The notes: generated by a model not told the origin, from the sequence alone. A DNA stretch of 59,560 bases from a bacterium (GCA_021851895.1 JAJZQJ010000009.1:1-59560), one strand, 5' to 3'. Positions 42,117 through 59,560 are shown, counted from the stretch's first letter. A program made the numbers and translations.

Positions 42117-42188
42117 AACACTGGGCAGTAGCCCGGTGTTTTGTTTGTCCCCTTAGGAAGCCGGCGCTCGTGGTGTACAATAGTATCA

Positions 42189-43994
42189 ATGAACATTGAC
42201 TGCAGCGTAAAGGAGGATCGAGGTTTCACCTTGATAGAGACGGTTGTTTCCGTCGCGATTTTCGCTTTCGTTGCAATAGGACTCTATATGTCATATGCGC
42301 AGGTGATGAAGGTTGTCCATCGTGCGCAGTTGCGCGTGGCGACTACGGCACTCGCGACCGAGCAGTTCGAGATGATAAGAAATCTGCCATATAGTTCCGT
42401 TGGTTTGAAGAATGGAATTCCAAGCGGAGTACTCTCTCCACTGCAATCACTCGTGCGCAGCGGCATGACGTTCAATGTGGCAACGATGGTGCGCAATATC
42501 GACCTTCCCTTTGATGGGCTTGCTCCTAGTGATACGAATCCAGCAGACAATAAATTGGTCGAGCTTGATATCATGTGTACTTCGTGTAGCGATCAGATCC
42601 CGATGTCCTTCACGACACAAGTTGGGCCGAAAGATCTCGAGGCGTCATCGACGCTCGGCTCACTCTTCGTGCGTACCATAAATGCCACAGGAAGCGCACT
42701 GCCTGGCGCAACGGTGCACATTGTGCTCGCTTCATCTACTGCACCTGTTGACTATACGGACATCACTGGAGCAAACGGCATGTTGCAGCTCGTTGGTGTG
42801 CTTCCAGCGGTGAATGCATACCAAGTTTCAGCGACAGAACCTGGTTACTCCATTGATCAGACGTACTCTCCTTATGGTCCGACGACAACGCACCCCGTCC
42901 TTCCTTATGCAACGGTTGCTCCGGGGACAGTGACGCAGCTCACGCTCGCGATCGATAAACTTGCTGATCTCAATGTGACGAGTGTTACTCCCGCATGTAC
43001 GAGGATCCCTGGGGTGCCATTCACATTGACGGGTGCGAAGTTAATCGGCACCGAACCCGTCTATAAATACCAAGCGACGAGTACAACCGATGGTGGTGGC
43101 GGGCTTGAGTTGCCAAATATGGAATGGGATAACTACACTGTCGAGGCATCGAAAGCAGGGTATGATCTCGTTGGTATCAGTCCACTCTCGCCGTTTACAC
43201 TTGCGCCTGGTTCGACGCAAAATCTCCAGCTCGTACTTATCCCGCAGACGGGGAATCCTAATGACAATACGCTCCTCGTCACTGTTACAGACGGTGTGAC
43301 TGGGCTCCCGCTTTCGGGTGCGGATATCGTCGTTGAAAAGGGAGGTGAGGTTACGCAATATCTTACAACTGGACGTGGTTTCTTGAACCAGACTGATTGG
43401 TCAGGGGGTTCTGGGCAAGATATGTTCGTCGATCCAACCGCTTATTACAGTGATGATGGCAATGTCGATGTGAGTGGTACTGCGGGCTCGGTGAAGCTCA
43501 AGAAATTCGGTGGTGGTTACGCTTCATCAGGAACACTCGAGTCATCGGTCTTCAGTGTTGATACAGCAAGTAATTTCTATCAATTGCGCTTCTCACAGAC
43601 GACGCAGCCAGCAGGCACTGAAGCAAAATTCCAGCTCGCTACAGCGAATGCGACCTCGGGCCCATGGATATTCATTGGGCCGAATGGTACGACGACATCG
43701 TATTACACCGCGACGACGACTGATATAAGTCCGGTATCCTCTGGATATAAATATTTCAAATATAAACTCTATCTCTCGTCGACCGATTCGAATAAGACTC
43801 CTGTTGTTGATGATGTTTCATTTACGTTCTCTTCTGCATGTGTCTCATCCGGTCAGGCGTATGCTCAGGGGTTGCATAATGGTACATGGACCGTTACGGT
43901 CTCAAAATCCGGCTATGCGACAGAAGTTCAGAATGTCGTCATGAGTACGACCAAACCGTGGGGAACGGTATCGTTCCAATTGAATCCAGCCTGA
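42189..43994 (+). CDS. Prepilin-type protein (PilV-like) with large beta-sandwich / carboxypeptidase-regulatory-like domains
   Basis: RG|FTLIE cleavage motif and hydrophobic helix; VTDGVTGLPLSGA, SKSGY repeats. Confidence 0.85.
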   Translation: MNIDCSVKEDRGFTLIETVVSVAIFAFVAIGLYMSYAQVMKVVHRAQLRVATTALATEQFEMIRNLPYSSVGLKNGIPSGVLSPLQSLVRSGMTFNVATMVRNIDLPFDGLAPSDTNPADNKLVELDIMCTSCSDQIPMSFTTQVGPKDLEASSTLGSLFVRTINATGSALPGATVHIVLASSTAPVDYTDITGANGMLQLVGVLPAVNAYQVSATEPGYSIDQTYSPYGPTTTHPVLPYATVAPGTVTQLTLAIDKLADLNVTSVTPACTRIPGVPFTLTGAKLIGTEPVYKYQATSTTDGGGGLELPNMEWDNYTVEASKAGYDLVGISPLSPFTLAPGSTQNLQLVLIPQTGNPNDNTLLVTVTDGVTGLPLSGADIVVEKGGEVTQYLTTGRGFLNQTDWSGGSGQDMFVDPTAYYSDDGNVDVSGTAGSVKLKKFGGGYASSGTLESSVFSVDTASNFYQLRFSQTTQPAGTEAKFQLATANATSGPWIFIGPNGTTTSYYTATTTDISPVSSGYKYFKYKLYLSSTDSNKTPVVDDVSFTFSSACVSSGQAYAQGLHNGTWTVTVSKSGYATEVQNVVMSTTKPWGTVSFQLNPA

Positions 43995-44057
43995 TAAACA
44001 CGATCGTCTTTGCGATCGTGTTTATTTTCGTCTTTGTGTCGTGTACAATGATGAGGT

Positions 44058-44693
44058 ATGTTCGCTCCGCAAAAGAAGAATTCGCTTTCCGATACTCGTG
44101 GTGTGACGATCATCGAGCTTATCGTAGTGCTCTTCATCCTCTCGCTTATCGCTGGGGCGGTCTATGCGTTTCAGAAAAACGTGTTTAGTACATCACGACT
44201 CTTGCAGACAAGTTTACGGAGTGAATCCGACGTGCGGAACGTCTTTAAGAATTTCACTGCAGAGGTGCGTCGCGCGTCACCAGGCTGGAATGGTGCATAT
44301 ACGATCGAAACTGCTGGTACTTCTACCTTTGTGTTCTATACGACCATGGACGGTGATACGTATACCGAGAGGATGCGTTATCAGCTTTTCGGAACGACGC
44401 TTTTGCGTGGAGTCACGAAATTCAACAGCACTACAGGCGCATATGATCTCCCTGAATCAACGAGCACGGTGATGTCAGGAATCAATGCGGATCCTTTCGG
44501 TAAGATATTCACTTACTACGACAAATCGTATGATGGTACCGCTACCTACCCAGCACTTACTGATCCCGTTGATATCGCGCGCGTACGACTCGTGCGCTTC
44601 GATCTTCCCGTGGCTCCGCTCGGAACATCGGCTTCCTCGACGAAGGTGAATTCTGTCGAAGTGAATTTACGGAATCTGAAAGATAATTATTGA
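44058..44693 (+). CDS. Minor pilin (PilW-like)
   Basis: RG|VTIIELIVV prepilin motif; C-terminal LRN. Confidence 0.8.
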   Translation: MFAPQKKNSLSDTRGVTIIELIVVLFILSLIAGAVYAFQKNVFSTSRLLQTSLRSESDVRNVFKNFTAEVRRASPGWNGAYTIETAGTSTFVFYTTMDGDTYTERMRYQLFGTTLLRGVTKFNSTTGAYDLPESTSTVMSGINADPFGKIFTYYDKSYDGTATYPALTDPVDIARVRLVRFDLPVAPLGTSASSTKVNSVEVNLRNLKDNY

Positions 44694-51375: not shown

Positions 51376-51434
51376 GCCTTTTTCTCTTATCTATGCTAAT
51401 CTGCCAAGTACTTAACGCAATTAATCTTATACGT

Positions 51435-51653
51435 ATGGCATCAACGAATATCTGCGTACTTTGTGCGAAGGGTACCCGCGTTGCAGGGGGTTACTCAAAT
51501 CGCGTTCGCGCCACAAAGTTCAATCCAACGGGGAACGTCCGCAAGTACCCAAATCTTCAGTGGGCAACCCTTCCCGAGAATATCGGTGGTGGCCGCATAA
51601 AGATCTGCACACGCTGCCTCAAGGGCAACAAGCACCTTGAGCTCGCAAAGTAA
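51435..51653 (+). CDS. rpmB: 50S ribosomal protein L28
   Basis: CVLCAKG..R..PNLQ..KICTRCLK. Confidence 0.85.
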   Translation: MASTNICVLCAKGTRVAGGYSNRVRATKFNPTGNVRKYPNLQWATLPENIGGGRIKICTRCLKGNKHLELAK

Positions 51654-51805
51654 AAACACCGAAAGGTGTTTTTCTTTTTTTGTTTGTTTTGTGGCCTCAA
51701 ACTTACAATTTAATGACTTTCATCATTGACAGTAGCCCCCCCGTTAGTGTATGCTACGCGACTGGTCACTCGACTTTATCGAGTTGTACTTTACAATAGA
51801 ATCAT

Positions 51806-52267
51806 ATGTCAAAACGCGATCGCATCATCACACTCGTTGGTGCAATAGTTATTGCTTTCGGAATTTATGGTATCAAGTATTACCTCGATCATCGCACAGT
51901 TATCAACGGTATCCATGTACCGATCATGCCGAACAGAAAGGAGAATAATAGTACCCTGCATGGTGTAGATACTGATCACAATGGTGTGCGCGATGATATC
52001 GATCGTATGATAGCGGAGGCATATGGAAATGATCCTGTAAGATACCGCCTAGTGTTTTCATATTTCAAAGCACTTACACTTGCGGTAGAAAATCCTACGA
52101 AGGAAAATGTAAGAAATGTGGGATATCGAGTCGCATGCATTCTGGGGCCAACTTATAAAGATGTGACAATTATTGAACATCAATACTTGGAGACTCCAGA
52201 GGTAGGAAAGGCCTATTCTCACGCGATGGCAGGTGCTATTGCAGACCTAACATGCATTCCTGAATAA
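51806..52267 (+). CDS. Hypothetical membrane-anchored protein with a DxDxNG (Ca-binding-like) motif
   Basis: N-terminal TM; GVDTDHNGVRDDID. Confidence 0.7.
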   Translation: MSKRDRIITLVGAIVIAFGIYGIKYYLDHRTVINGIHVPIMPNRKENNSTLHGVDTDHNGVRDDIDRMIAEAYGNDPVRYRLVFSYFKALTLAVENPTKENVRNVGYRVACILGPTYKDVTIIEHQYLETPEVGKAYSHAMAGAIADLTCIPE

Positions 52268-52287
52268 CAAATACAGAGGAGATACTT

Positions 52288-54525
52288 ATGCGTTTATCGC
52301 ATATTTTTGCCAGCTTCATTTTTGCTTTATTCATTTCAACAGCGCTTATGGCGCAAACACCAGTTCGAGTTATTTTTATTAATGGTATACAAAATACTCG
52401 AAAAGAAATTGCTGATTCTGCGAATGTGATTAGAAATGTTCTAGCAGCGCCGACACGGCACCAGCAAGGTAAGTATGCATTTAATGTTGAGTATATCGAA
52501 AACCCAATTGGGTGGAACGGTATCGACGCACCAAACTCACTATGGCAAGACAGCATTGAGCTTTTCCTCATGAAATTAGCTGAGGAGCAATATGCTGGAG
52601 ACCTGCTCAATCTGAAGTCTCCCGTGACTGGTCCGCCGCTCCCTACGAACCTGCAAGCAGCAACAAACGTTGCGCAGTTTGCCGGGAAGCTCAGGGTGAT
52701 GAATGCGGGCCCGACGCGTGATTTCAGCGCAGTACCATATGGGACACTCTTGGGTGACAATGATATCGATAGTGGTGGAGTTATTTCGGATACCGATCTT
52801 CAGGCAACCCAGGAATGCATTACACAACTTGCAGCAACACTGACCAGTGCAACCGCGCCCATCATCATCATTGCGCATTCGCAAGGTAATCTCATCGCTA
52901 ATCTCGCATATGCGAAAGCGGCGCGTGATATGTACCCAAGAAACATCAGTTCGTTTGTGAAGATCGTGAACATCGCGAATACTTCACAGATATCGCTCCA
53001 TAATCTCAACCTCACCCATGCGGACGATAAAGCACTTTTCTCTCCCATTGCCAGCCTATCAGGTCTCCCCTCATGGTACGGATGGAACAGAGCGGTCCCT
53101 TCGCTCGACACGAATACGGGGATAACCACCTATAGTCTTTCGACTCAGAACTTCACGCTCGATACTCCAACAGCATCGGGCTTAGTGAGTTTTACGTGGA
53201 CAGATCTCACGGAGCACGGACTCGTCGATGTGTATCTCTCGAATGATCCCGTCACCATGTCTGATACTCGCGGAATTACATTCTCTCCGGGATCATTCTG
53301 TATGCGTGACTACTTCGAAGATCTCGTCTGGACCGCTGCCGCGAGTCTCGATACAACCGCAGCGATGCCGACAGTGCAGATGCTCAACCCCTGTATCATC
53401 GCAGGTGAAGGCCAAAGTGTGACCCTGAGTGCTCAGGCAATGAGCCAGGTGGGTTCATTAGTTGAGGTTCACTGGGAACGGCTCGACCACCCCGAGGTGA
53501 ATTTCTCACTTCCCGCGTACGCCAATACCACCATGAGTGGCAACACCGCAACAAGCTCAGTGACATTCACTACGCCGTTTGTTGCGGCAACAACCACATT
53601 CAAGGTCGGCTTCTTTGCAAAAGATGACCGCGGTATGGTGAGTAGTGGTACTGCAGAAGTGCAGGTCCAGCATGGAAATCTTGCTCCAACCATCACTGCG
53701 GATCCGAGTTATGCAACCATATCAGGAACTGGGGTGACGCTCCATGTTTCTGCAGCAGATGCTGACGGCTACCTTGTTTCTGCGGTCGTTGAGCAAATAA
53801 GTAATACCAGCTGGCTCACAATTGATTCGCCGCAGACACTCACGACGAACAACAGCAATACTGCGAGCTGGGATATCCCAGTGACCATACCGGGGAATAC
53901 TCCCGGCGGTACTTATACATATCGCTTCACGGTTACGGACAACGATGGTGCTATGACTACGCGCTCTATTGACCTGGTGGTCACCCCAGACTATTTTGTC
54001 GATGATTTCTCTACGGTCACGTCAGTAATCCCAACACATTGGGCTGTTAATTCATTTGGTTCCAGTGCATTCGTCTCGGGTGGTGTGCTCAATCTCCAGC
54101 ATCTTGTTGCGCAGTCAATGAGTCTCGGCACACGAGCATTTCACGAGGGTACGAACTTTCGCACATACGCGAAACTCTCCGATGGTGGCTCCGTGCGCCT
54201 TACCGCAGGCATGGATGGTATCGCCATTGTGCAAAATGATGCCAGTTTTTCGCAGCGGTATCAGGTGCAGGTTTGGACAACAGATCCAAACACCTATGTA
54301 ACACAAACACAATACTTCGACTTTGCTATTGCGCCTGATGTGTATCATCTTTTTGAGTATATCTATGGAGTAGACGGTATGGTGACCCTTCGCGTCGATC
54401 AGGTATCGCTCGTGCAGACAATGAAGACGGCTCCGTTCTTTTATGGCGCCCGAATGCAGTTCAGCTATGGGCAGACGCTTCACGGCACGGGCACAATCGT
54501 GCAGTGGGCGGGCGTGACCCCATGA
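52288..54525 (+). CDS. Secreted alpha/beta-hydrolase-like protein with Ig/PKD-like domains
   Basis: Signal peptide, VIFINGI, AHSQG nucleophile elbow, NLAPTI..DADG, TVTDNDGA. Confidence 0.75.
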   Translation: MRLSHIFASFIFALFISTALMAQTPVRVIFINGIQNTRKEIADSANVIRNVLAAPTRHQQGKYAFNVEYIENPIGWNGIDAPNSLWQDSIELFLMKLAEEQYAGDLLNLKSPVTGPPLPTNLQAATNVAQFAGKLRVMNAGPTRDFSAVPYGTLLGDNDIDSGGVISDTDLQATQECITQLAATLTSATAPIIIIAHSQGNLIANLAYAKAARDMYPRNISSFVKIVNIANTSQISLHNLNLTHADDKALFSPIASLSGLPSWYGWNRAVPSLDTNTGITTYSLSTQNFTLDTPTASGLVSFTWTDLTEHGLVDVYLSNDPVTMSDTRGITFSPGSFCMRDYFEDLVWTAAASLDTTAAMPTVQMLNPCIIAGEGQSVTLSAQAMSQVGSLVEVHWERLDHPEVNFSLPAYANTTMSGNTATSSVTFTTPFVAATTTFKVGFFAKDDRGMVSSGTAEVQVQHGNLAPTITADPSYATISGTGVTLHVSAADADGYLVSAVVEQISNTSWLTIDSPQTLTTNNSNTASWDIPVTIPGNTPGGTYTYRFTVTDNDGAMTTRSIDLVVTPDYFVDDFSTVTSVIPTHWAVNSFGSSAFVSGGVLNLQHLVAQSMSLGTRAFHEGTNFRTYAKLSDGGSVRLTAGMDGIAIVQNDASFSQRYQVQVWTTDPNTYVTQTQYFDFAIAPDVYHLFEYIYGVDGMVTLRVDQVSLVQTMKTAPFFYGARMQFSYGQTLHGTGTIVQWAGVTP

Positions 54526-54624
54526 TCTAAAATATATTGCGCCTACGATGTAGGCGCTTTTTAATTAGATTTCCATGAGTATATATCTAGACTTTCAAAT
54601 TTCTTAACTTGCAATGCTGTATAT

Positions 54625-54666
54625 ATGTCAAAACGTGATCGCATCATTACTGTTGTCGGTTTTTAG
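54625..54666 (+). pseudogene. Remnant of a paralog of the 51806 gene (first 12 codons)
   Basis: MSKRDRIITVVG* versus MSKRDRIITLVG. Confidence 0.7.
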
Positions 54667-54701
54667 TGCAACCCATTCGTGCATACTATATAATATGAAG
54701 T

Positions 54702-57605
54702 ATGCGTTTGAATCTCATCATTAGTGTGGTCGCTTTAGCATCGATGTTTGCCATGGTGACGTATGCGTCTGTAAACTACCCTTCATCAGTATCATCGGGA
54801 GTTGCGACGACATCCATTGCAGCTAGTGATGATCCTGCTCCAGCTCGACCATTTTTCACGTGGTCGAGTTCTCCTCGTGAGAATATTTTTGATGCGGTGC
54901 TTCCTTGGGGAGAGAACGCGACATATGCGTTCCTCGAAGAGAATGGTGTCATCGTCGCGTCGACGACGCTTCGCGCGCATACGCCGTTTTCAGAGAGATT
55001 TACCTTTACCGCACCGATCCCTGCCGATGGCTATTATGAATATGACATAAAGTTGTGTGGTATGTCATTGGACGAGCAGGCATGCACACGCTCCGCTCCA
55101 CTTGCACTTGTTGTCCAAAAAGGTGTCACTACTTTAGAGAGTGATCTCGATGCAAGTGACCAGACGACAGTGAGAATCGATGAATTGCATGAGCGCTCGA
55201 TCGAAAACGCCGCGGCGTTTTTCAGGTCAGCAGAGGTGCGCTTGCACGGACTTTCAGGAGACTTGAGTTTGGATAAAGTCAGAACGCAGGGTGAGGAAAG
55301 CAACCTTGATCGCATACGCCGTATCATCTCGAGCGAAAGTAGGCGTGCCTTATTCGCTCCGACAAATAACATCTCACGCTCAGATCTATATGCCGCAATT
55401 GCTCGTTTTCCTGCATTTTGTAATGAATCATCTGCTGATGAGACGCTTGATGTCGCCTGCACGAGAGAGCTCGCCGCAGTCATCGCCTATATCAGTTATT
55501 TCACGAGTCACGGCGAGCCGAGTCTTGTTTCGGGTATGCGCGATCCGGGAGGAATCGAAAGACTTCTCGGAAATGATGTCGCTCGCTTTGATGCGCTGTT
55601 TCCTGCGGAAGATGATGTGCGTGGGGCATCTTTTAAAGAACGTATTCGCGAGCATCCCAGCGATGCATTGCTTGCTATCTTGTGGTGGTACATGACCCCA
55701 CAGAGTCCAGAGCCCGATCCGCATAGCGCCTTGTTGGGTATTTGGATTCCAAGTCGCGAAGATAGCGCACGTGGCATTGCTCCTGGATTCGGTGCGACGG
55801 TAAATATCATGAGTCATGGAAAGAGTTGTGCTCGATCGTCAGCGAGTGGGGAGCGCGACACGTTGTCTGCTTTGTATCACGGATTTTTGCTTGCGCTTCA
55901 TGCGACGGATACTCGTAAGGACTCATGCCTTGGGCAAGAGGCATTTGATCTTTCAAGCTCATCATTTGCCCCGCAATATTGGTCATGGGATGCCGATACG
56001 TCATCCTGCGTGCTTGGTGTCACTGAGAATGCATTCTTCGTGCAAGACGAGCAGGGTTACACACAATGCATGCGTGCCCATGGTGCGATGTCCCCACTCC
56101 CGCCACCAGCAGAGGAACGCTATGACCGAGCTTCAAGGATGATCGATGCGCTCCGTACGCGCATCGGGACAAGTACTGTAGAAGAGGGCACCATCACTCC
56201 GCCCGATCCACGAACAGCACTCGGCACAACGATCATCGGTACATATAGAAATCAGCGCGTCGATATACATGAGACGCAGCCCGCAACAATTCCTTACGCA
56301 AAGTTGAACACATTGTTTTACGAAGGCGCATATGTGAATGCTTCAGGGACGCTTGCACTCAGCAATCCCTATGCATTTAATGACATGCCGTTTTCAGATG
56401 ATTGTTATCGCGAGGATTGTCCTCGCGGGCTTGCACACCGTTTTCTGCTTGCGCATGGTCAATATCCTCATTTGCAACTTGTACTCAGTATTGGTGGTTG
56501 GGACGGTTCGAACAACTTCTCTTTACTTTCGAATACGGCATTGCGTGAATCCTTTATTTCATCGGTCCGAGGATTTCTTCTCGCACAACCAGATTTCACC
56601 GGTATTGATATCTCATGGATGTATCCTCAATATGCGGAGTATGGCGTGGGCGGCAAGACAGTGAATGACAGAGAGACGATGCGTGAGATCGTGCGAGGTC
56701 TTCGAAATATGCTCGATGGACTGTATCAGCAGGATGGTATGTTGCGACGGTTGTACGTCGGAGTCGGAGCACTTCAGGATGAGGTTGATGCGATCGGACT
56801 TTCCGATATTGTGAACTTAGTCGATGGCGTGCATCTGATCACCTACGATCTCCATGGTCCATGGGAGCAGAAGACGGGGCATGATGCGCAGTTGTTTGCG
56901 ACAAACATCGGCGATGACGTTTTGAGTGTCGCGAATGCGGTGACATTTGCGCGTAAGGCAGGAGTCCCTTCGAAAAAACTCATCATCGGCATTCCTTATT
57001 ATGGGAGGATATGGAGAAACGTCCCCGTGGGAACGAATCTATTGCTTCCGGGTTTTCAAGTTGAAGTACCCGCACGAGAGACAGCATCTTTGCTTGATTA
57101 CCGTACTATTGCCGCATCGATACTTGGGAAGGGGCAGTATCAATATTATGTCGACGCATTACGTGGAGCAGCATATCTTTATGATGGAACGAATTTTGTC
57201 TCCTATGATGCGCCCGACATCATTGCGCGCAAGATGGAATATGTCTGGCGGGAAGGTTTCGGTGGCGTGCTCCTTTCTGATGTGATGGGCGATGACGGGA
57301 CACTACAAGATAGGGTACTGCGTGTCATTGCGGAGCGATCGCAAAAGAAGTCATGCACGCTCACTCGTATGCCTACGCGGAACCTTGCAGTAAATAGTCG
57401 TGGGGCAGATGTCTTCGCTTTGCAGACATTCCTCGCTTGCCTTGGTGATATGCCGGAATATATCGATATAAACGGGAACTACGGCCAGGCGACCCAACAA
57501 GCGGTGATGCTTTTCGAAAAGGCAGAAGGACTCCCAATAACAGGCGTCGTCGGGAAGGATGTCCGCGATCGCTTGCAAGCATATATGAGTTCAAAAACAC
57601 CTTGA
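54702..57605 (+). CDS. Secreted multidomain protein: Ig-like, degenerate GH19, degenerate GH18, peptidoglycan-binding domain
   Basis: GH19-like RELAA, WWYMTPQSPEP, PGFGATVNI; GH18-like LSIGGW, TYDLHGPW, KLIIGIPYYGR, SYD; PG-binding SRGADVFALQTFL..GNYGQATQQAV..F..GLPITGVVG. Confidence 0.85.
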   Translation: MRLNLIISVVALASMFAMVTYASVNYPSSVSSGVATTSIAASDDPAPARPFFTWSSSPRENIFDAVLPWGENATYAFLEENGVIVASTTLRAHTPFSERFTFTAPIPADGYYEYDIKLCGMSLDEQACTRSAPLALVVQKGVTTLESDLDASDQTTVRIDELHERSIENAAAFFRSAEVRLHGLSGDLSLDKVRTQGEESNLDRIRRIISSESRRALFAPTNNISRSDLYAAIARFPAFCNESSADETLDVACTRELAAVIAYISYFTSHGEPSLVSGMRDPGGIERLLGNDVARFDALFPAEDDVRGASFKERIREHPSDALLAILWWYMTPQSPEPDPHSALLGIWIPSREDSARGIAPGFGATVNIMSHGKSCARSSASGERDTLSALYHGFLLALHATDTRKDSCLGQEAFDLSSSSFAPQYWSWDADTSSCVLGVTENAFFVQDEQGYTQCMRAHGAMSPLPPPAEERYDRASRMIDALRTRIGTSTVEEGTITPPDPRTALGTTIIGTYRNQRVDIHETQPATIPYAKLNTLFYEGAYVNASGTLALSNPYAFNDMPFSDDCYREDCPRGLAHRFLLAHGQYPHLQLVLSIGGWDGSNNFSLLSNTALRESFISSVRGFLLAQPDFTGIDISWMYPQYAEYGVGGKTVNDRETMREIVRGLRNMLDGLYQQDGMLRRLYVGVGALQDEVDAIGLSDIVNLVDGVHLITYDLHGPWEQKTGHDAQLFATNIGDDVLSVANAVTFARKAGVPSKKLIIGIPYYGRIWRNVPVGTNLLLPGFQVEVPARETASLLDYRTIAASILGKGQYQYYVDALRGAAYLYDGTNFVSYDAPDIIARKMEYVWREGFGGVLLSDVMGDDGTLQDRVLRVIAERSQKKSCTLTRMPTRNLAVNSRGADVFALQTFLACLGDMPEYIDINGNYGQATQQAVMLFEKAEGLPITGVVGKDVRDRLQAYMSSKTP

Positions 57606-57737
57606 TGCTTCGAGAGATACAGCCCTTTGCTGTCTTGCATTATTCGTAAAATAAGGTATAGTACCAGGACCTGATGGATTTACTGCTCCTCGATACATCG
57701 TGGAAGCACAGGTGAATAAAGAAGGTGTAAGCACTTC

Positions 57738-57849
57738 ATATTTTTGACACATTGAGGCTCACGCTTCGGCAAAGTCGCTCGTCACCGTACAATCCGTACG
57801 ACTCCGACGGTCCTTCGCCTCCAGCGAGCCCCACTGTATTCAAAAATAT
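57738..57849 (+). promoter_or_regulatory. Long hairpin in the rpsL 5' leader (REP-like core)
   Basis: ATATTTTTGA..GGCTC / GAGCC..TCAAAAATAT arms with a CGTAC-aatcc-GTACG core. Confidence 0.55.
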
Positions 57850-57933
57850 TTTGCGCTGAATAAGACCGTAAGGTCATATTTCGTCTCTTTGAGAGGAAAT
57901 ATTTTACTTCAAGTTAATTCAATAATCTGGCTC

Positions 57934-59267: not shown

Positions 59268-59406
59268 GGAGTAAATATTTCTCAGTGTTTCATTGTGTGG
59301 GGTATGTGAAATGCAAATTGATTCCTTCGCTGTTTCATGGTGTTCATTACCTGACTGCGAAAAATCCAAAACGAAAGTATGGGATCGGCTATGCTATACT
59401 TTTGTC

Positions 59407-59560
59407 ATGAAGTTTTTTTCTCGTCGAGGTTTCACATTGATCGAGCTGCTCGTCGTTATTGCGATCATTGCGTTGCTCTCGAGTGTCATATTGTCAGTGA
59501 TGACCTCTGCGCGCGTGAAGTCTCGCGATGCCGCGCGTCTTGCGAACGCGCATCAGTTGA
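59407..59560 (+). CDS. Type IV pilin (5' part, truncated by window edge)
   Basis: MKFFSRRG|FTLIELLVVIAIIALLSSVIL..AR.KSRDAAR. Confidence 0.9.
   Translation, partial: MKFFSRRGFTLIELLVVIAIIALLSSVILSVMTSARVKSRDAARLANAHQL

Follow-up and report, generated by a model that had tools for sequence, protein, structure and literature searches.

What can a protein be for that carries two chitinase folds and the canonical catalytic acids of neither? This question is raised by a gene near the end of a 59,560-nucleotide stretch of bacterial DNA (GCA_021851895.1, JAJZQJ010000009.1:1-59560; the whole stretch is referred to as the window). A preliminary description, made from the sequence alone, had read the gene as a double pseudo-chitinase fused to a peptidoglycan-binding domain and possibly acting as an adhesin. 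In our analysis both folds were recovered by Pfam, the GH19 fold also by a structure model, and Glu at the acid position of either was found in none of nine family members; as far as sequence comparison can tell, the protein has neither of the two canonical catalytic machineries and belongs to a family that is being maintained. The pseudo-enzyme status thus stood, on the motifs and on family conservation, while binding of N-acetylglucosamine (GlcNAc) polymers and an adhesin role are kept here as a proposal. To the earlier picture we add an N-terminal immunoglobulin (Ig)-like domain resembling that of ChiA, the loss of the segment carrying the GH19 base Glu, a single origin of the GH19 domain, two intact GH18 genes in the same genome, and a variable island that contains the gene.

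54702..57605, + strand: pseudo-chitinase gene, an uninterrupted open reading frame (ORF)

The ORF begins with ATG and comprises 967 codons plus a stop codon, as noted before. Its product is ordered as signal peptide, ChiA-N-like Ig domain, long helix, GH19 fold, GH18 fold, and PG_binding_1, and scores above the curated cut-offs of three Pfam families (GH18, PG_binding_1, and GH19); an NCBIfam scan of the 967-aa protein returned no family at its cut-off. A 967-codon open frame with such Pfam scores is far from chance.

56289..57275, + strand: GH18 TIM-barrel with an alpha+beta insertion, residues 530-858 by Pfam (about 506-873 by alignment)
56595..56627, + strand: degenerate GH18 catalytic motif FTGIDISWMYP, with Thr633, Asp636, Ser638, and Met640 at the D, D, D, and E positions (alignments)

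The GH18 domain belongs to its family by a wide score (Glyco_hydro_18, PF00704, residues 530-858, E 1.5e-52, 179.7 bits against a cut-off of 29.6). A phmmer search of the protein against PDB sequences gave 162 matches at E<=0.01, including Serratia ChiA-type enzymes and mammalian chitinase-like proteins, and the best of these, 5gzu_A (deposited as 'Chitinase'), aligns over two separate stretches (E 2.1e-69). The GH18 landmarks SIGGW, TYDLHGPW, and GIPYYGRIW are retained, as is the alpha+beta insertion. The catalytic signature DxxDxDxE reads TxxDxSxM, the first Asp being replaced by Thr633, the third by Ser638, and the Glu by Met640. In all three phmmer alignments listed to solved chitinases, 'gidiswmyp' lies opposite 'gidldweyp' or 'gvdldweyp', and in an alignment with three canonical GH18 domains (P0164, P0016, and P0007) TGIDISWMYP lies opposite DG(V/I)DIDWE(Y/F)P. 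The translation of 56595-56627 and these alignments agree with the earlier reading, in which Met replaces the catalytic Glu and Ser the assisting Asp. The catalytic Glu and assisting Asp that mark an active GH18 enzyme are absent, and Glu occupies this position in none of the nine members. Two PDB titles provide precedents for a hydrophobic residue at the GH18 catalytic Glu, as they name chitinase A of Vibrio harveyi as 'inactive mutant E315M' (3b9e) and chitinase A, E315L, in complex with a hexasaccharide (1nh6). By these alignments the GH18 domain is a dead chitinase barrel from which the canonical catalytic acids are gone.

55296..55949, + strand: GH19-fold core, residues 199-416, without the acid Glu, the base-Glu segment, and GRGxxQL(S/T) (Pfam, alignments, and model)
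55500..55502, + strand: codon for Phe267, the residue aligned with the catalytic acid Glu of GH19 (alignments)
55950..56141, + strand: Cys-containing C-terminal extension of the GH19 domain, residues 417-480 (alignment and model)

The Pfam match to Glyco_hydro_19 (PF00182) is partial, covering residues 325-382 and profile positions 149-206 of 232, and places the domain in the family with E 2.2e-11 and 44.4 bits against a cut-off of 25.5. When residues 195-480 were modelled from a 23-row alignment (pLDDT 88.6, pTM 0.86), Foldseek returned 29 PDB matches at E<=0.001, every one a GH19-fold chain. VIA comparison with GH19 chitinases gave Z 20-21 and rmsd 2.2-2.7 Å over 190-205 residues, model residues 5-222 corresponding to residues 199-416 of the protein. 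On the evidence of the model, the domain is a full, real GH19 fold. The C-terminal extension (model residues 223-286) has no counterpart in solved GH19 structures and is common to a GH19 chitinase subgroup with a (K/R)FPAFC motif.

Positions 55464-55505 translate to RELAAVIAYISYFT, and all of our alignments place Phe267 where the catalytic Glu is expected, as the preliminary description had it. Thus 'isyfts' lies opposite 'vshets' or 'tshett' in five of the five phmmer alignments listed, stretches that are individually weak (i-E 4.9 to 480); a 23-row MAFFT alignment also puts Phe267 at the acid position; and in an hmmalign alignment of 145 GH19 domains it falls in the acid column, which holds Glu in 115 of the 141 domains from outside the family. 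The acid Glu of (S/Q)-(H/Q)-E-T that marks an active GH19 enzyme is replaced by an aromatic residue in all nine members (Tyr in seven, Phe in the query and one relative). Opposite the base Glu and the water-holding Ser/Thr of GRGxxQL(S/T), the MAFFT alignment has a gap or a replacement, and neither the 'WRQGLYYVxE' block, with the second Glu, nor the 'YYGRGxxQLSxNYNYG' block finds a counterpart in it, in line with the earlier remark that GRGxxQL is not recognisable. The nine members have 43-63 residues between the acid column and the MTPQ block, where the median of the 141 other GH19 domains is 107 (5th-95th percentile 92-127, minimum 78). As aligned, the GH19 domain has lost the base-Glu segment as well as the acid Glu.

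A remodelled cleft, or both clefts, might nevertheless use non-canonical residues to act catalytically, with peptidoglycan or a deacetylated glycan as a conceivable substrate. An activity would fit the long-term conservation of the two domains, and polar residues are invariant in all nine members in or near the old GH19 cleft (Glu242, His341, Asp354, Asn368, and His372) and in GH18 (Asp716, Arg769, Asp860, and Asp864); position 337 is Glu or Asp throughout the family, where 112 of the 145 aligned GH19 domains have Lys. However, both acid positions are hydrophobic or non-acidic in every member, Met at the GH18 position is the 'inactive mutant' of the 3b9e title, the GH19 segment with the base Glu and the water-holding Ser/Thr is missing, and the nine-member alignment contains no acid conserved family-wide between the acid column and the MTPQ block. 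We regard such a cryptic enzyme as improbable.

The loss of both centres can be followed in eight relatives with the same architecture, five at 50-54% identity and three at 27-30%. A word-index search returned seven proteins at E<=0.001 among 8000 scored candidates, query included; five are full-length orthologs (P0002-P0006) with 99-100% coverage and the same three Pfam families, and the seventh match is an unrelated GH18 protein. With the GH19-like domain alone, the word-index search found one canonical GH19 chitinase, and a HMMER search found 478 proteins at E<=0.001. Among the 13 best of these 478, which were scanned with Pfam, are the three distant relatives P0012, P0014, and P0015 (867-901 aa, GH19-GH18-PG_binding_1, 27-30% overall identity). 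A nine-row profile found the six close members again, together with P0164, and missed P0012, P0014, and P0015; because three known members were missed, the family size is a lower bound. One ortholog cluster is labelled 'glycosyl hydrolase family 18 protein [Candidatus Paceibacterota bacterium]' by NCBI, and one ortholog 'chitinase' by JGI.

Catalytic residues missing from two domains at once might also point to a chitinase gene in neutral decay, or to an assembly artefact. Yet the 967-codon frame is uninterrupted and has eight further intact relatives, so that nine intact ORFs of 867-971 aa (27-54% identity) are available, and the structure models are confident. The domains are more conserved than the linkers: mean pairwise identity among the six close members is 0.59 in the GH19 core, 0.62 in GH18, and 0.75 in PG_binding_1, compared with 0.32-0.37 in the linkers. 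Position 640 is Met in all six close members (Thr, Ile, or Arg in the three distant ones), and position 267 is aromatic in all nine. Residue conservation in orthologs, suggested earlier as a check, therefore shows substitutions that are conserved and not decaying, with Glu at neither acid position in any of the nine. Decay or artefact is in our judgement next to negligible, and by these comparisons we are dealing with a maintained pseudo-enzyme family.

In a quick maximum-likelihood tree of 70 GH19 domains, which carries a warning on long branches and composition, the nine family domains group together as a single clade with a long stem (SH-aLRT 100), and this clade falls within a set of domains from multi-GH19 proteins (support 96). 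The simplest history would be a single origin of the pseudo-GH19 domain within a clade of multi-domain chitinases, in which the loss happened once in the common ancestor and purifying selection then acted on a new role.

Besides the two chitinase folds, the protein contains modules that may bear on where it acts.

54702..54770, + strand: signal-peptide-like N-terminus, residues 1-23 (M-R, hydrophobic stretch, T-Y-A before S; read from the sequence)
54834..55118, + strand: Ig/FnIII-like beta-sandwich, residues 45-139, resembling the N-terminal domain of Serratia ChiA (model and VIA)
55167..55250, + strand: long single helix between the Ig and GH19-like domains, residues 156-183 (model positions 133-160)
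57399..57575, + strand: PG_binding_1 (PF01471), residues 900-958 (Pfam)

The putative Sec signal (basic residue, hydrophobic stretch, and A-x-A-like site) follows the same pattern in the eight relatives. Residues 24-198 were modelled as a beta-sandwich followed by a helix of ~28 residues (pLDDT 73 overall, 74-92 within the sandwich), and the sandwich contains a conserved Cys119-Cys128 pair. For this model Foldseek listed no structure at E<=0.001, with the ChiA N-terminal region in second rank. The top rows from VIA were Serratia ChiA residues 24-131 (Z 10.8, rmsd 2.1-2.2, 84 residues aligned, 25% identity); generic FnIII/Ig chains reach equivalent Z scores (9.4-10.5) with only 6-15% identity. 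In none of the six close members did Pfam match ChitinaseA_N (PF08329) at E<=10, and a sequence search of the N-terminal region against PDB gave one chance-level match only. An hhalign comparison of the family alignment with P0016 aligned the GH18 parts alone and adds no information on the ChiN-like domain. At the level of the modelled fold the sandwich is ChiA-N-like, and homology is likely, though unproven. The C-terminal PG_binding_1 domain, which the preliminary description had also recognised, matches its profile over the full length, positions 1-57 of 57 (E 1.5e-11; 44.7 bits, cut-off 23), and is found in all six close members and in P0012, P0014, and P0015.

We consider it most likely, though tentatively and with a little less than even confidence, that this is a secreted non-hydrolytic protein made of chitinase parts that binds a foreign wall polymer without cleaving it. 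In this proposal, the protein would be exported by the Sec pathway and held non-covalently on peptidoglycan by PG_binding_1, most simply on the cell's own wall because the genome uses this module on many secreted proteins without an enzyme domain. The dead chitinase modules would present grooves that bind a GlcNAc polymer (a peptidoglycan glycan strand or chitin) on another surface without cutting it, and the protein would act as an accessory, strain-variable attachment or recognition factor. Binding by the dead folds is plausible, by analogy with the hexasaccharide complex and the inactive mutant named in the titles of 1nh6 and 3b9e and given the cleft residues that are invariant in the six close members (Ser596, Gly598-Gly599-Trp600, Tyr715-Asp716, Trp721, Tyr767, Arg769, and Trp771). 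For the putative adhesin role, the traits at hand are the signal-peptide-like N-terminus, PG_binding_1, and the variable-island context.

Chi-lectins bind chito-oligosaccharides. Like the GH18 domain described here, CHI3L1 (YKL-40) is a GH18 barrel with an insertion domain in which a hydrophobic residue has replaced the catalytic Glu; solved CHI3L1 chains align with residues 586-858 (E about 1e-22), and the SxGGW, YD, and YGR motifs are retained in the close clade. All six close members keep Trp600, Tyr715, Asp716, Trp721, and Arg769; the beta-8 Trp is lost in all nine and further cleft Trps are lost in the distant clade. Unlike chi-lectins, the 967-aa protein is bacterial and is fused to a dead GH19 fold, a ChiA-N-like domain, and PG_binding_1.

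For GH19, the nearest parallel is in plants, whose chitinase-like proteins (CLPs; CHIT 3 and CHIT 4 in the GH19 Engineering Database) have the catalytic Glu deleted or exchanged and are described, in the passages of PMC8547705 that treat them, as predicted or shown to be non-enzymatic; those passages describe no bacterial GH19 CLPs. Our GH19 model compares well with one of the plant proteins (HbCLP1, PDB 4mst, Z 19.2), and both are GH19 folds without the catalytic Glu. The plant proteins, however, retain the full-length fold with Glu changed to Lys or Ala, according to the same passages, whereas here Phe or Tyr is combined with a shortening of 44-64 residues, and the domain comes from a different GH19 subgroup with the Cys-rich C-terminal extension.

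Closer in composition are two apparently active chitinases, P0164 (GH18, two CBM5/12, and GH19, with FDGVDIDWEYP, QETG, and GRGAKQLS) and P0016 (ChitinaseA_N, fn3, GH18, and GH19). They consist of the same building blocks, including GH19 with (K/R)FPAFC and the C-terminal extension, but keep DG(V/I)DIDWE, QETG, the second Glu, and GRGxxQLS, have GH18 before GH19, and carry CBM5/12 or fn3 instead of PG_binding_1. Other GH18-GH19 fusions are two diatom proteins, TwChi10 and TwChi22, described in a passage of PMC12028343, and one protein counted in a passage on a CAZy/M5nr survey (PMC6626019). Serratia marcescens ChiA likewise has an N-terminal Ig-like domain before a deep-cleft GH18 domain with insertion (GH18 match E about 1e-30). 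It differs in being catalytic; in our protein the Ig-like and GH18 domains are separated by a GH19-like domain, and Pfam does not recover ChitinaseA_N. With regard to function, cultivated Patescibacteria are described, in the relevant part of 10.64898/2026.10.06.756255, as attaching by lectin-like adhesins that bind host peptidoglycan or wall polysaccharide, among them PilX1 and PilX2 of Nanosynbacter lyticus. The likeness to these surface proteins is a functional analogy only, with no claim of homology: they have unrelated folds, are borne on pili, and belong to another class of Patescibacteria.

Several observations weigh against a foreign-wall lectin of this kind. In the GH18 domain, the beta-8 'GGxxxWE' reads 'GGVLLSD', so that Trp is replaced by Ser859, and none of the nine members has Trp here (only Ser, Ala, or Gly); in the three distant ones, Trp600 (of GGW), Trp639 (before the acid position), and Trp721 (of YDxxGxW) are missing as well. 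A single function shared by the family therefore cannot use the canonical -1/+1/+2 aromatic platform. The strongest GH18 conservation across the nine members lies in the beta7-insertion-beta8 region (YGRxW, YxYD, SYD, D860, and D864), not in the old active site. The GH19 cleft is 44-64 residues shorter than the median of the 141 related domains and has been re-lined, 'SPKPS' having become 'SPEPD' and 'INGGxEC' having become 'M-S-H-G-K-S-C' ((S/T)HGxxC in the family). PG_binding_1 could bind either the cell's own or a foreign wall, and the episymbiont lifestyle is one that we infer from a 1.1-Mb genome and the 'Candidatus Paceibacterota' label on one ortholog. Given the lost Trps, the shortened and charge-reversed GH19 cleft, and conservation away from the old GH18 site, the ligand may be something other than plain chitin.

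The same shift in conservation could be taken to mean that the dead folds bind proteins, as decoys or inhibitors that block foreign lysozymes, chitinases, or other proteins. Pseudo-GH18 proteins that act on proteins and not on sugars are known, such as the GH18-fold xylanase inhibitor of cereals, which binds and blocks its enzyme. However, PG_binding_1 and the ChiA-N-like module point to glycan surfaces, and there is no candidate target; a decoy is in our view very improbable.

An alternative in which the protein never leaves its own wall depends on the rest of the genome (1.10 Mb, 16 contigs, 99.7% complete). This genome contains a single GH19 match, the 967-codon gene itself, and two other GH18 ORFs, which lie divergently on contig C7.

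L043 1462-2628, - strand: intact-motif GH18 ORF, contig C7 of the same genome
L043 2686-3861, + strand: intact-motif GH18 ORF, contig C7 of the same genome

These two ORFs encode proteins of 388 and 391 aa, each with a signal-like N-terminus and an intact DG(I/V)DIDYE motif, and one is 23% identical to the pseudo-GH18 domain. Neither has an NCBIfam name, and one has a weak match to an EndoS TIM-barrel. The pair may be the organism's real GH18 enzymes, and their motifs indicate that the lineage still uses normal GH18 chemistry, so that motif loss is not a lineage quirk. PG_binding_1 has 14 matches in the genome (loci L046-L053), with tandem groups on contigs C1 and C10; none of five other PG_binding_1 ORFs that were scanned has a catalytic Pfam domain, and two carry TIG/IPT domains. 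Judging by its presence on many secreted non-enzyme proteins, the module seems to tag proteins for wall association generally in this organism. Wall hydrolases are known to be regulated by dead enzymes, as when degenerate LytM factors activate amidases. By analogy, the protein could bind its own peptidoglycan as a scaffold, a spacer, or a regulator of wall hydrolases; the 14 matches of PG_binding_1 on the organism's own secreted proteins fit such a role, and the two intact-motif GH18 enzymes could be partners. We nevertheless consider an own-wall role rather unlikely. The intact GH18 genes lie on another contig, and no partner is indicated; further, the gene is missing in one same-genus genome (G110) and in two of the same family, and it is part of a variable island, which is unexpected for core wall machinery.

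The island that contains the putative foreign-wall binder spans 6.2 kb (window 51680-57897) directly upstream of rpsL and holds a 153-aa ORF, a gene for a 745-aa secreted protein, and the 967-codon gene. G110 is 100% complete, its S7 protein is 90% identical to that of the source genome, and it is collinear with the window at 38.9-51.7 kb and 57.9-59.0 kb (flanks 66-82% identical in DNA). In it (L058, G110:C6) the island is replaced by ~1.9 kb with an ORF for a 443-aa membrane protein.

52288-54525, + strand: upstream neighbour, 745 aa, with a signal-like N-terminus (ORF)
54539..54557, + strand: terminator-like hairpin of 8 pairs with a T-run, just 3' of the stop of the upstream gene (consensus scan)

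The 745-aa neighbour has a PKD-like domain (residues 481-565, Pfam E 1.1e-6) and a weak partial match to a myxosortase-dependent M36 protein; searches of the three closest genomes (G110, G264, and G196) did not find it. It also carries an 'AHSQG' stretch, which we take to resemble the nucleophile elbow of lipases and esterases. The hairpin after its stop suggests that the 967-codon gene may be transcribed on its own, the terminator scan being weak overall (8 sites against 5.8 expected in shuffles). The promoter scan was not above shuffled expectation (10 sites against 10.4). A TATAAT hexamer lies ~10 bases 5' of the ATG (54687-54704), and a clear Shine-Dalgarno sequence is not visible there; from this, the transcript of the 967-codon gene may be leaderless or have a short leader.

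Between the gene for an M50 peptidase and the island, 270 bases (window 51410-51679) are 79% identical to G110, compared with 66-72% in the coding flanks upstream of that stretch, and a terminator-like hairpin is located at 51652-51673; Rfam and tRNA scans of 50-59.5 kb, which include these bases, found nothing. The region around the 967-codon gene is rich in surface-protein genes, among them pilin-like genes with an N-terminal methylation motif at 42141-44690 (+) and 59293-59559 (+). One of the pilin-like genes encodes 617 aa with CarboxypepD_reg, and another, cut at the window end, begins ...RGFTLIELLVVIAIIALL.

We also searched for the gene in ~1,100 relatives, drawn as samples at the level of order, class, and phylum, and did not find it among those searched. 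In the sample of 300 same-order genomes, no match spanned the GH19-like part; one match covered GH18 only (G021, 31%), and 40 began at residue >=830 and were essentially PG_binding_1. The samples of 400 same-class and 400 same-phylum genomes gave no matches at E<=1e-15 and E<=1e-20, respectively, and two scans of genome contigs found no relative. A scan of metagenome contigs recovered only 20 short contigs of marine origin; their GH19 domains are distant (22-31% identity) and not orthologs, some being canonical and some lacking the acid Glu. Glu is likewise missing from the acid column in 26 of the 141 neighbouring GH19 domains, many of them marine metagenomic and often several per protein (proteins P0009, P0010, P0013, and P0050; loci L025, L026, L029, and L032), so that pseudo-GH19 domains, as aligned here, may be common outside plants. 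A phage-borne receptor-binding protein or a prophage origin was considered and rejected: the search of viral contigs found no family member, with one partial GH18-like match (residues 743-792), and 13 neighbouring ORFs that were scanned contained no phage-typical Pfam domain.

Returning to the proposed foreign-wall binder, a more specific version may be sketched, which we regard as possible but doubtful. In it, an ancestral ChiN/GH18/GH19 chitinase would have lost both catalytic centres once, its GH19 cleft would have been re-lined (Lys to Glu/Asp, and His), and a peptidoglycan anchor would have been added, giving a 'bivalent dead-enzyme lectin' of Paceibacteria-like ultrasmall bacteria. Such a protein would be a strain-specific determinant for a host wall glycan, possibly a de-N-acetylated or otherwise modified peptidoglycan, and would recognise it without lysis.

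Dead GH18 domains (chi-lectins) and dead GH19 domains (plant CLPs) are each known separately. In the open-access and bioRxiv literature we found no description of one polypeptide with both dead folds, or of a bacterial one with PG_binding_1; inactive GH19 proteins from bacteria might be listed in supplementary tables of the paper on the GH19 database. In surveys, the GH18 and GH19 genes of these bacteria are counted towards a potential for chitin degradation (as stated in a passage of PMC12153355), and annotation pipelines call such proteins chitinase or GH18, as the JGI and NCBI labels of the orthologs show. A protein that scores for both GH18 and GH19 and has neither catalytic centre means that CAZyme counts can overstate metabolism. 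For the organism itself, the gene is a candidate surface factor for wall-glycan recognition on a variable island of a 1.1-Mb ultrasmall-bacterium genome and, if it does encode a bivalent dead-enzyme lectin, it would be one of the factors that set host range in an uncultivated symbiont lineage.

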